In this document: positions 1 through 47,461 of the stretch, piece after piece | Layout of the letters: the number at the start of each line of letters is the position of its first letter | Position numbering within the stretch: the stretch's first letter is position 1 | Source of the DNA: Eledone cirrhosa | Lineage: Eukaryota | Assembly: GCA_964016885.1 (NCBI GenBank) | Contig: OZ024761.1 | Span: 10,788,001 to 10,852,000, forward strand | Length of the DNA: 64,000 nucleotides | Direction of reading: 5' to 3' | Position numbers and translations under genes: made by a program | The notes under the pieces: generated by a model | Databases searched by the model: none | What the model saw: only the letters and a program-made list of their open reading frames with translations | Told to the model about the DNA's origin: nothing

Positions 1-1076
1 TAGAGAGATATAGAGAGAAAAAATTTAAAAATAGCCAGACATATTCGAGGCGTAGAAAACCCTATGTTTTAATGTATTAGTATTTATAAAACTTACACTA
101 TATTGTAAATATCAGTATTCATGAATGAAACAAGTATTCACAATGCGTGAAAATTCATTATCTTATGTTTAGTTTTTAAAAAAATTCATATGTCTATGTG
201 AATCCAACTGATTCACTCCGCAAATTCAAAGTTACCGGAAAACATTCTCAATGTGGTATAAAAATTTGAGCGTATTATTATTCTTGCGATTACTCTACAA
301 GATTATCTATCAAGCAGAAATAGAGAGCAGGTTTCAATATACTAATCGAAAATATATATTATATTATAAGCAGAGATAACAATAATAATGATAATAAGTA
401 AAAATATATAAAAATATAAAAATATAGAATAGAAAACTAAAAAAGAATATTACGAAAGAATATTACATAATAAAAATATTGCATATTAAAAATACTACGT
501 ATTAAAAATATTACGTATTAAAACTTTACATATAAAAATATTAAAAATAAAAATAAAATAAAATAAAAAATAAAAATATTATAGAATACTACAATACTAA
601 AAGAATAAAAATAAAATAAAAATAAAAATAAAAATAAAAATAAAAATAAAAATAAAAATGAAAATAAAAATAAACCACAAAGAACAACCCTTCAAAGTTA
701 ATTGACAATATATTGCCAAGTTCACTATAAGACAAAGCCAAAAATTATCTATCAAATCACATCTAGCAAGGAATATCTCAAAAAAAGATTATGATGTCCA
801 ATAATGTCTACATATGTTCCTATATTTAATATATAAGTTTATCAAGTGTAAGGTTAATTCAAAAAATTTGGAGCATCGGCTTTTAGGGTAGCTTAATTTT
901 TCATGAGGAATGTTTAGATAAAAATAAAAATAAAAATAAAAATAAAAATAAAAATAAAAATAAAAATAAATAAAATAAAATAAACAATAAAAAGAGTAAA
1001 AAGAGGGAATCAAAGATTTAGGAATCAAAAGATTTATCGGCTAGTACTCATATAAATATAAATCAAACTAAATATA

Positions 1077-2798
1077 CTACATTTTAAATTTAAATTTATA
1101 TTTAAACGTTGAGTTTAATCTATGTTTGCAACAACTGAATAAATTTGTCCGTAGGTTAAGGGAATTTTTAGATTTTAGTATAAAGAATATCTCCTCTGCG
1201 CAGAGGTCACATGTCTCAGAGGATGAATTAAAAGGAATCCCTCTTGAGACTATATTCCAAGCCGTCGAATATCTAACGTTATGTAGCTTAAGTTGCCAGA
1301 GTACACCTGATAGTGCCGTTGAAGATTTTTTATTTGGATCTGTGAAAGAATTCTTGTGGTTATTATAGCGAAGTTTAAATTCCGTCGATGTGGAACCGAC
1401 GTAGTTAAAAGAATTAGAGTCAGTATTAACATTACAATTGTATACTATATTTTTAACTAAGCAGTTGTTATTTAACGGACATTTAGATCTATCTCTACAG
1501 TTACATTTGTTAACTTGTATATTATTTATGCTATTATCAGTAGGTTTTAAGTTCCTATTATTTATTCTATTAATATTTTGTGCTAAATTTTTGGTGGATG
1601 AGTAGGTTAATTTAATTGTATGCCTATTGAAGATTGAGTGGTACCTATGTGTTCTAGGGAAGCGATTATCAAGAGCTTTGAAAAATAATTTAGCGATGTG
1701 GGTTTTAATGTTTAGTGAGAAAGGGGGGGCAAACCAAATTATGTTCCTAGTTCTATTTCTTTTTTGTCCTTTGGAATTATTGTAATGCTTTCTATTATAG
1801 TTGTTAATGTTGTTGCCGTAATTAAAAAAGTTGTTACTTTGTTTAGTTTGTTTATCATTATCTATGTACACAATCTTATCAGCATACCCTGCCCTAGCTA
1901 GTGCATCATTATAGTATTGGGCCTTTTCGTCAAAAATCTTTCTATTCGACGAGATCCTAGAGATACGTTTTTGGACTGAGTTTACTATAGTGTTTTTGAG
2001 AGATCTGGGGTGGTTAGAGTTAAAGTTGACATAGTTTAAGTTTTCATTCAACTTGTGAAAAGGATAGTGGAGACATGTGTTGAGATTTAATGTTATATCT
2101 AGGAAATTGACTATTCTATGGTTGTTCTCAATTTCTATTTTAAGGTTAAAGTAATTAAAAAATTTTGTAATTTGTTTACATTTTCTATTTAGTTCAGGGC
2201 TATTATTATTAATAAGTAAAAGCATGTCATCCCTATATAAACCTCCGGTAGTACCAGGTATTTTCCTATGTAGCGAATTGATTAAAAATAAGCCCACAAG
2301 GTCAGTTACCTGAGCTGAGTCGGAAGATCCCATAGTTATGTCAAAATTGCTATCTCTATCTGCTCTGGTCCATAATTTGTCATCAAATTCTATCAAAGTT
2401 TTCCTAGCCGATAATATAATATGCATTTCTTTGCTAGTTAGGTCCGTATGTTTGAATGCGTAATTTAGTGCCTTATTTAGTAGACTAGGGGTAATAGAAG
2501 AATAATAGTTAGCTATATCAAGTTGAATAAACATATTATTATTGTTATATTTAATTTGCCTAAACCACTCAACAACCTCTCCAGTTCGCTTCCACAAGCT
2601 CAGGTTAGATACATAATCCAAGTTCTTAATTTGCAGTATCACCCTGTCAGGAATGTTTTTGCTTAATTTGCCCAGGTCCGATTTTGAAAGTGCGATCAAT
2701 CTAACTGGCAGGTCAATCTCAAAATTCCTCTTGTGGTCCTTCATATTGATCTTCGGTTTCCTCGGCACGAAAGGTTGTGTTCTGTTCTCAATTTCCAA
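1077..2798 (-). CDS. PLE reverse transcriptase with C-terminal GIY-YIG endonuclease, 5'-truncated (the TTG start sits at the inversion junction)
   Basis: RT motifs QLDIANYYSSI, ITMGSSDSAQVTDLVG, LYRDDML, VNFLDITL and SNHP. Linker CNCRDRSKCPLNNNC. Endonuclease motifs IVY..YVG, KLRYNNH, CDLCAEE, LNLR..CKH. Confidence 0.92.
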   Translation of the reverse strand: MEIENRTQPFVPRKPKINMKDHKRNFEIDLPVRLIALSKSDLGKLSKNIPDRVILQIKNLDYVSNLSLWKRTGEVVEWFRQIKYNNNNMFIQLDIANYYSSITPSLLNKALNYAFKHTDLTSKEMHIILSARKTLIEFDDKLWTRADRDSNFDITMGSSDSAQVTDLVGLFLINSLHRKIPGTTGGLYRDDMLLLINNNSPELNRKCKQITKFFNYFNLKIEIENNHRIVNFLDITLNLNTCLHYPFHKLNENLNYVNFNSNHPRSLKNTIVNSVQKRISRISSNRKIFDEKAQYYNDALARAGYADKIVYIDNDKQTKQSNNFFNYGNNINNYNRKHYNNSKGQKRNRTRNIIWFAPPFSLNIKTHIAKLFFKALDNRFPRTHRYHSIFNRHTIKLTYSSTKNLAQNINRINNRNLKPTDNSINNIQVNKCNCRDRSKCPLNNNCLVKNIVYNCNVNTDSNSFNYVGSTSTEFKLRYNNHKNSFTDPNKKSSTALSGVLWQLKLHNVRYSTAWNIVSRGIPFNSSSETCDLCAEEIFFILKSKNSLNLRTNLFSCCKHRLNSTFKYKFKFKM

Positions 2799-2960
2799 CT
2801 TTTTTTCTTCCTTTTCTTCGTTTTGTCTCTCTTTCTTTCTTATTTCCCTCTTTTCTCTCTCTCTTTCTTTCTCTCTGTATTTTCACTGCTAGAGTAAACC
2901 TCTTCAAATGAAGTTGATGTTTATTACGGTATGTCGAATATATTTATCTATAAAACAGTT

Positions 2961-3039
2961 TATATTGTATTTTGTCTGATGAAGGCATAGCATATTGTTA
3001 ATATGATATCCCCGAAATATATATAATGAAATAAATATG
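2961..3039 (+). ncRNA. Type I hammerhead ribozyme, family A, in the inverted pLTR (antisense to the RT ORF)
   Basis: tatattgtattttgt-CTGATGA-stem II (catatt gtt aatatg)-GAAA-tatata-TA-atgaaataaatatg. Stem III is the palindrome ATATATAT. Stem I pairs with two G-U and one bulge, and is extended by tataaaac/gttttata. Confidence 0.75.
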
Positions 3040-46163: not shown

Positions 46164-46430
46164 ATAAATAAGTAAATTAAATTAAATAAAATAAGATAAA
46201 TAAATACATACACAAGCACATAAACACACACTAGTCACCCAGCAGACACAACACTATACACACTAGTCACACATCACACATAACACTATACACACACGCA
46301 AACGCATGCGCAAAGAAGACAAAATAAAATAAGATAAACAAACAAGCAAATAAATAAATAAATAAATATATAGACAGACTGAACAAAAAAAAAATGGCGT
46401 AGACATACAACACAACAGGAGGAACAATGA

Positions 46431-46487
46431 ATATAACACCACTGACGATGTTGCAGATGTGCAACGAAAGATTTATGTAAACTATAT
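46431..46487 (+). ncRNA. Hammerhead-like motif, family F, with a weak stem I (inverted copy at about 45107-45163; diverged copy at about 63292-63346)
   Basis: CTGACGA-t gttgca gatg tgcaac-GAAA-gatt-TA. Core and stem II are conserved in the diverged copy (CTGATGA). Confidence 0.55.
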
Positions 46488-47461
46488 ATATATGTGTTTG
46501 TCTATATTGTATCTGTATTATTTTTGACCGCCGGTCAGTCAATGGCAACATTGAGGACCGAGTAAGTTAGATCGCAGATATATATATATAAAAGACAGCG
46601 AGAAGCGAAAACCAACCAAACAGTGAGTGTGTTCTGTTATTAATTCTGGCAATATTACGCAAATATGACCCTCCCCAAATATAACAATATCTGTTTCGAC
46701 ACACGATTTCATATAAAAAACCTCGCAAAACTAATTCATCGCCGCTATATACATATATATATATATATATACATATATATATATATATACATATATATAT
46801 ATATATACATATATATATATATACATATATATATATATATACATATATATATATATACATATATATATATATACATATATATATATATACATATATATAT
46901 ATATACATATATATATATATACATATATATATATATACATATATATATATATATACATATATATATATATATATATATATATATATATATACATATATAT
47001 ATATATATATATACATATATATATATATATATATATACATATATATATATATATATATATATACATATATACATATATATATATATATATACATATATAC
47101 ATATATATATATATACATATATATATATATACATATATATATATATACATATATATATATATACATACATATATATATACATATATATATATACATACAT
47201 ATATATATACATATATATGTATATATACATATATATATACATATATATGTATATATACATATATATGTATATATACATATATATATATATATATGAAAAG
47301 CCCCTGGCTTGATCACTACTACAGGGCTTAGAAAAACTGAAGGACTGCTGTAATAACTGTATGAATCTGAGAGGGTAATATGTTGAATAAAATCATAATT
47401 AACTCATTTTTTTTTACCCAATATTTTCTTTTACCCAATATACATACATATATATATATCT

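Follow-up and report, generated by a model that had tools for sequence, protein, structure and literature searches.

A 64,000-nt stretch of the Eledone cirrhosa genome (assembly GCA_964016885.1, contig OZ024761.1, positions 10,788,001 to 10,852,000 of the forward strand; hereafter the window, meaning the whole stretch analysed) carries five repetitive elements that each consist of two copies of one sequence joined head to head. How does an element come to be inserted twice over, in opposite orientations, at one site, and why does a non-coding array of hammerhead ribozymes share this layout with coding retroelements? We find that each of the five is a two-armed insertion in (TA)n with its arms set head to head: family A is present twice and families D and F once each, all three of them Penelope-like elements (PLEs) by protein motifs, and one array of hammerhead units, family R. 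The arms end on two fixed sites per family, a short end (S) and a long end (L), the excess of L over S being the tail, and nearly every two-ended insertion combines one S with one L. We put at roughly 60% the probability that such insertions arise by twin priming, in which a dimer of the PLE enzyme copies one RNA from both sites and the two complementary DNAs (cDNAs) are fused by end-joining. The feature is real and known in outline; a sharper S+L rule and a testable mechanism are added here.

Two-armed insertions in the window

An inverted copy of the element's own 3' terminus had been predicted in each case. Self-BLAST finds four of these inside the window, with arms that are 96-100% identical (second copy of family A, R, D and F). 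For the first copy of family A the inverted arm, proposed from its sister copy, proved real and lies off-window, its tail-bearing L end falling at window position -654, about 655 nt left of the window, and being followed by TA. All arms face outward, with their 3' ends at TA tracts and their 5' ends joined inside, and a motif scan places hammerhead cores on the outward-reading strand of the arms. The features are listed below with window coordinates and strand (ORF, open reading frame; RT, reverse transcriptase; UTR, untranslated region; pLTR, pseudo-long terminal repeat).

1..2800 (-), long arm of family A copy 1 (A1), a Hydra-type PLE by motifs, 5'-truncated, continuing off-window to its L end
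1080..2800 (-), A1 ORF remnant with RT, CxCX5C linker and GIY-YIG-like endonuclease (translation)
2804..3076 (+), A1 short arm, terminating at the S site; hammerhead core at 2976
3077..3601 (no strand), TA-rich target tract between A1 and R (self-comparison)
3602..5863 (-), family R left arm, 7.3 copies of the 310-bp type I hammerhead unit, outward-reading; S end
5858..7475 (+), family R right arm, 5.2 copies; L end
9803..10421 (-), left arm of family A copy 2 (A2), L end with 89-nt tail; hammerhead core at 9990
10419..11788 (+), A2 right arm, 3' UTR/pLTR; S end; hammerhead core at 11690
31245..33050 (-), left arm of family D (a second Hydra-type PLE by motifs), a long pLTR/UTR with S end and a hammerhead core at 31337
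33050..34428 (+), family D right arm, L end with 94-nt tail; hammerhead core at 34246
44901..45167 (-), short arm of family F with S end and a hammerhead-like core at 45152
45166..46745 (+), long arm of family F, comprising the end of RT/thumb, CX4CxxC linker and GIY-YIG (to 46160), then pLTR
7476-9802, 11789-12996, 31044-31244, 43621-44900 and 46746-47293, similar TA tracts

The layout thus stands as predicted, with two borders moved: the element given as 9891-11788 begins at about 9803 and that given as 31245-34338 ends at 34428, the extra 89 and 94 nt being the tails. The RT of the A1 remnant is broken immediately upstream of the KDHK motif. In D the left, minus-strand arm is the long copy, and the pLTR of the long F arm holds a hammerhead-like core at 46442, the ORF start and the 57-nt tail (L end). 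Inner junctions carry 3 inserted bases in A1 and microhomologies of 6 nt in R (5858-5863), 3 nt in A2 and 2 nt in F. The TA tracts at 7476-9802, 11789-12996, 43621-44900 and 46746-47293 are 0.5-2.3 kb long and are interrupted periodically.

Pairing of short and long ends

Exact terminal patterns recur throughout the TA-rich, 3.0-Gb host genome, with 1,442 L and 1,257 S ends for family A, 1,085 L and 1,357 S ends for family R (by DNA similarity search R returned only 31 scored candidates, and counts come from the exact patterns), and 3,179 matches to the F terminus. Pairing was counted at unselected coordinates on contig C1. All 60 outward pairs of family A within 10 kb were S+L in its first 256 Mb (100 L and 89 S ends), as were all 53 outward pairs of R within 20 kb in its first 208 Mb (73 L and 100 S ends); L+L or S+S pairs numbered 0 of 113. 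Ends without an outward partner by exact patterns made up 69/189 for A and 67/173 for R.

Among fetched loci and window copies together, two-ended insertions were S+L in 28/28 cases for A, 16/16 for D, 15/15 for R and 33/34 for F. The D sample comprised 23 loci fetched out of 31 implied by 40 matches, and the F sample 39 loci, partly picked for visible pairs, among the first 100 of the 3,179 matches; L035, an apparent duplicate of the L033 left arm that ends at an assembly gap, was left out. Three seemingly one-armed F copies bear L arms of 13-19 nt, so that both strands were primed there too.

Outer ends, tails and hammerheads

Tails measure 27-34 nt in R, 57 nt (sometimes 45-47) in F, 89 nt in A and 94 nt in D, close to the arm-end differences of 27, 55 and 90 nt predicted originally. 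TA adjoins 179 of 183 true outer ends in the fetched loci (203 matches less 20 read-through matches), against 15% of random positions there, which bears out the proposed embedding in (TA)n, and S and L ends on TA are found for R genome-wide, extending the layout to a non-coding ribozyme array as had been proposed. The same ends, again followed by TA, are present in contigs from other public sequencing runs, for R in X2 and for F in X1 and X3, which rules out an assembly artefact.

Both ends are internal sites, because sequence continues past L into the ORF in tandem copies (A in L014 and L019; F in 8 matches) and S lies upstream of the tail by definition. The RNA 3' ends originally invoked as starting points are therefore not the starts. 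The predicted hammerhead cut lies 49-51 nt from S and 138-145 nt from L in A and D, 139 and 165 nt in R, and 215 and 270 nt in F, near the inner end of the short arm; hammerheads "near the outer ends" is thus an apt description for A and D, a loose one for R and a wrong one for F. Arm starts do not pile up at the cut site (at most 1 R arm near phase 112), and cleaved monomers are therefore not the usual template.

Evidence for a shared template

Across 67 insertions, 655 comparisons at shared polymorphisms gave 13 discordances between the two arms, where 207 would be expected from other copies, although arms of one insertion still differ at a few private sites. In R arrays, every full unit of either arm carries the variants specific to its locus (e.g. 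L041, L042). A shared haplotype demonstrates a common source, not strictly a common molecule.

The evidence for the same molecule is the shared 5' stop. Inner junctions had been described as arbitrary; they do vary, yet arm 5' ends pile up at one point per family. In A, 15/60 pairs span 470-500 nt, the expectation if both arms end at an initiator-like TCACT, and similar 5'-stop hotspots occur in D and F; an initiator-like motif, the same as the hotspot motif, is described in rotifer pLTRs (PMC3846280), and the hotspots would be transcription starts. Outside the hotspots, 8/75 pairs stop no more than 40 nt apart against 2.3 by permutation (p=0.0014), and 3 pairs stop within 12 nt against 0.8 expected (p=0.04).

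As to whether R was copied from a circle or a multimer, units are homogeneous within insertions, yet single variant units recur. Among loci L038-L043, five arrays hold one unit without the phase-231 variant of all other units, which may reflect recurrent mutation, a mosaic template or a polishing error.

Inner junctions

Junction points are variable and arm lengths range from 13 nt to 6 kb. Sixty-eight of 97 junctions were resolved; 39 of these 68 are without inserted bases, and 24 of the 39 share at least 2 nt, against 15-21% by chance. Such junctions fit the end-joining of two cDNA ends as expected from established repair pathways, and variable junctions with microhomology enrichment support the original proposal of target-primed reverse transcription on opposite strands of a cut (TA)n, with the products joined internally. 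Fixed junctions and a lack of TA bias, named beforehand as grounds for abandoning that proposal, are not seen in the copies analysed. R junctions seem clustered at unit phase 190-231, a pattern that was noticed post hoc in a region overlapping a natural palindrome.

Family identity

An intact relative of family A in L019 has a single 738-aa ORF with RT plus, at the C terminus, a GIY-YIG endonuclease, and the F protein in L094 and L123 exceeds 1,130 aa and contains YVDD and YIGET (both by motif inspection). For D the C-terminal 346 aa were seen; the upstream part, found in L075, L081 and L082, encodes an endonuclease region related to that of A. The four families had been called unrelated, but the A and D proteins share 38.5% identity over 244 aa (E 5.5e-46); the A and F proteins gave no alignment between the two. 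Pfam and PDB sequence searches with the PLE proteins returned no supporting match.

The Hydra clade is defined by a CxCX5C linker, absence of CCHH and a (TA)n target (PMC8557442, section 11). A and D carry linkers of this type (CNCRDRSKC and CNCRRASGC), are without the CCHH cysteines between GIY and YIG and target (TA)n, and A has IRWRA and SDKT motifs that match the RWK-like and DKT traits of the clade; by these motifs both are endonuclease-bearing (EN+) PLEs of Hydra type. The F linker, CTNRKCIIC (CX4CxxC), fits the CX2-5CxxC of Neptune/Nematis, two Cys between VVY and YIG with His residues downstream make up CCHH on inspection, and DKG reads DKS; F is thus by its motifs a Neptune/Nematis-type PLE, of either of the two clades. 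Its ORF begins just ahead of the short end, and the tail encodes N-terminal residues. In L094 and L123 the N-terminal part of the F ORF holds an Asn-rich insert of about 170 aa, comparable to the N-rich inserts of rotifer Penelopes (PMC3846280). Tandem units forming pLTRs measure 3,926 bp in A and 4,147 bp in F; for D no tandem copy was seen in the fetched loci.

The R unit is 310 bp long, non-coding, has a GC content of 34% and carries one type I hammerhead, 12 cores being spaced at 310 nt in the window. On sequence grounds R answers to the definition of an animal non-LTR retrozyme (tandem units of about 170-400 nt, low GC, no ORF). Among the 150 of 323 Rfam matches listed at E<=1 there were chance hits on TA repeats but none to a hammerhead family, and hammerheads were therefore located by motif scan. 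The hammerhead region of R has a folding z of -5.2. Putative cores in the A, D and F pLTRs fold no better than shuffles; by inspection the stems of D pair well, stem II of A is mismatched and stem I of F is weak. Loops of 310 nt occur for R in contigs of other public runs, a form that tandem DNA produces too. No RNA data set was listed as containing R.

Mechanism and alternatives

In the twin-priming model favoured here, a dimer of the PLE RT-endonuclease would bind one RNA and nick both strands of (TA)n, and two cDNAs would be primed at the two fixed internal sites of that RNA, S and L, the tail being the stretch between them. The enzyme started at L would displace the cDNA started at S, each cDNA would halt at random or at the RNA 5' end, and host end-joining would fuse the two cDNA ends. 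A non-coding 310-nt hammerhead RNA, circle or multimer, might be copied in trans by a PLE enzyme; the enzyme moving R was not found in the fetched DNA, where R itself and an older non-coding relative are the only matches to the R unit. A broader generalisation, to which we give somewhat less than even odds, is that PLE integration is an obligate two-headed reaction: one dimer would copy one RNA twice from two fixed internal sites, the inverted arm normally taking the place of second-strand synthesis instead of being a by-product that arises now and then, and the same reaction, needing no RNA 3' end, would write small hammerhead circles as two-armed concatemers.

Several observations weigh against twin priming on one RNA. 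A shared haplotype is also expected from two RNAs of one active locus or from gene conversion between arms. At R locus L041 the variant pattern fits both arms only with an L start one unit downstream of S; the two starts may therefore not lie at one stem-loop, although polishing errors could mimic the pattern. A folded element shared by the tails was looked for and not detected (z -0.4 to -2.0). One-armed copies occur in all four families (8/23 fetched D loci without a second arm; 5 F loci), and the sole F exception to the pairing rule, L099, is L+L', its junction being common to the neighbouring L100; it is probably a rearranged duplicate. In L073 (2651-7168) a D arm with an L end stands head-to-head with a 3.2-kb truncated copy of another, Neptune-like PLE with no TA between them, the latter having its own end without the 33-nt extension present in L017 and L129, which suggests either a mixed-family pair from two RNAs or a later deletion. 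Twenty-nine of the 97 junctions are unanchorable, and 29 of the 68 resolved ones carry inserted bases, often locally templated and in some cases homopolymer-length artefacts. Finally, in the Poseidon system discussed below the start site is no different between top and bottom strand, pairing not having been tested there (PMC11167929).

The alternative that survives best is an asymmetric dimer holding two transcripts of one source locus, with S used as the start by one subunit and L by the other. It dispenses with strand displacement, accounts for S+L pairing and, if one source is active per cell, for the shared haplotype, and it fits the register shift of L041 and the mixed junction of L073. 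It does not predict the near-identical interior stops (8 against 2.3), and discordant arms are found in few insertions though several haplotypes coexist per family. We consider it unlikely, if a serious competitor.

Less probable still is fold-back or self-priming, in which one cDNA or an antisense template folds back to give the inverted arm and the endonuclease trims one end, leaving the tail; an antisense template was proposed in PMC3846280 and tail-leaving trimming in PMC8557442. Identical arms, the near-perfect palindromes (19/75 pairs start no more than 40 nt apart) and templated palindromic inserts at some junctions would all follow from it. It fails for non-nested pairs: in 29/75 A, D and F insertions the S arm extends in the 5' direction beyond the L arm by more than 40 nt, and L alone bears the tail, so that neither arm is a copy of the other and simple fold-back is excluded there. 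Reach shows no length bias: of the 75 pairs, S goes further in 29 and L in 27, and 19 are ties. Some L arms barely exceed the tail (L060, L076, L096), and a single first cDNA cannot template both an L arm of 13-19 nt and the S arms of up to 1.4 kb beside such arms. Start sites in vitro, moreover, coincide with both tail borders (PMC11167929), as expected under twin priming.

Two independent priming events from RNA 3' ends, as originally predicted, would yield the outward 3' ends, variable junctions and TA flanks, but also L+L or S+S in about half of pairs. The one S and one L found per insertion, with none of the 113 pairs on C1 deviating, refute independence; the arms share haplotypes and both sites are internal in tandem copies, and we regard this account as very improbable. 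DNA transposons with terminal inverted repeats (TIRs), later inversions or assembly artefacts can claim the long inverted repeats and a target-site duplication unreadable in (TA)n, but are refuted by unequal ends, variable junctions and the range of arm lengths, by ORFs that encode RT and GIY-YIG rather than transposase, and by ends that recur in other runs' contigs. The TIR class was rejected as a candidate, equal fixed termini, a fixed interior and a transposase all being wanting.

Other repeats in the window

An older F-like short end (about 72% identity) faces an older R-like end (79%) across a short TA run at 63254-63652. The older R-like family gave 2,301 first-look candidates with a unit of about 317 nt, and at several of its loci the ends fall close to the same phases of S and L. 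An element that contains an 88-bp tandem array occurs twice between TA tracts, at 13330-14360 and 34777-36482, the two copies having a common tail and the latter an 86% inverted duplication at 35924-36362; the scan found no hammerhead motif in this element. A direct duplication of about 2.1 kb (36435-38490 and 42190-44317) is 88% identical including microsatellites and mostly TA-rich. An open frame of a long interspersed nuclear element at 14446-17583 (-) encodes 1,045 aa with APE endonuclease and RT (Pfam), and fragments of the same family occur in L011 and L097.

Comparison with known systems

The insertions described here differ from L1 twin priming, in which the inverted part is not known to be a duplicate: their two sites are fixed and internal, separated by 27-94 nt, and their 3' region is present in two copies. 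As in the model proposed here, a single RNA serves for priming from both target ends in L1, and microhomology joins the two cDNAs, but one of the L1 primers is placed at the RNA 3' end while the other takes a variable internal position (PMC2912911).

Inverted partial pLTRs, cited originally as a known trait of PLEs, are indeed known, and the layout is more fully published than that implied (PMC8557442, PMC3846280). Insertion units of EN+ PLEs (Craig et al. 2021, PMC8557442; Arkhipova et al. 2013, PMC3846280; Schostak et al. 2008, PMC2377424) show the same inverted, 5'-truncated copy, a tail of 30-40 bp that is often one-sided, partial tandems, a (TA)n bias, a pLTR hammerhead and an ORF start near the tail; hammerhead pairs on opposite strands are also published (PMC4209133). 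Relative to these accounts, the one-tail rule is here counted and nearly strict, the arms are shown to share a template, and the tails of the Hydra-type families (89-94 nt) and of F (57 nt) are longer. The origin of PLE tandem and inverted structures was named as an open question in PMC8557442.

The Poseidon PLE of Anolis has been studied in vitro (Frangieh et al. 2024, PMC11167929); it cuts both strands and extends them, with two internal starts that match the tail borders, an AT-rich target, a predicted dimer and dispensable hammerhead cleavage. In the portions of that study considered here the two sites are not paired within one insertion and the inverted arm is not explained; our PLE families are of other clades by their motifs.

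Animal non-LTR retrozymes (Cervera and de la Pena 2020, PMC7229834; Li et al. 2026, 10.64898/2026.07.22.740005) resemble R: their type I hammerhead units, about 300 nt long, stand in tandem, are low in GC and lack an ORF, and PLEs were proposed as their mobilising partner, local tandem amplification being also discussed by Li et al. R differs in forming more than 1,000 dispersed arrays with PLE-type S and L ends on TA. A term search of the main texts of these two papers found no description of inverted arrays, and the parts of PMC9977147 consulted hold nothing on inverted arms. S+L pairing counts, arm-haplotype tests and two-armed retrozyme arrays were not found by the literature searches made or in the passages of open main text consulted.

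Implications

The near-strict S+L rule, arms from the same template and non-nested arm lengths narrow the range of models for PLE integration and yield sharp predictions for the in vitro system of PMC11167929. Palindromes of this kind should not be annotated as TIR transposons. That PLEs mobilise animal retrozymes has long been proposed, and the S/L signature on more than 1,000 retrozyme arrays provides evidence for it at the level of insertions.

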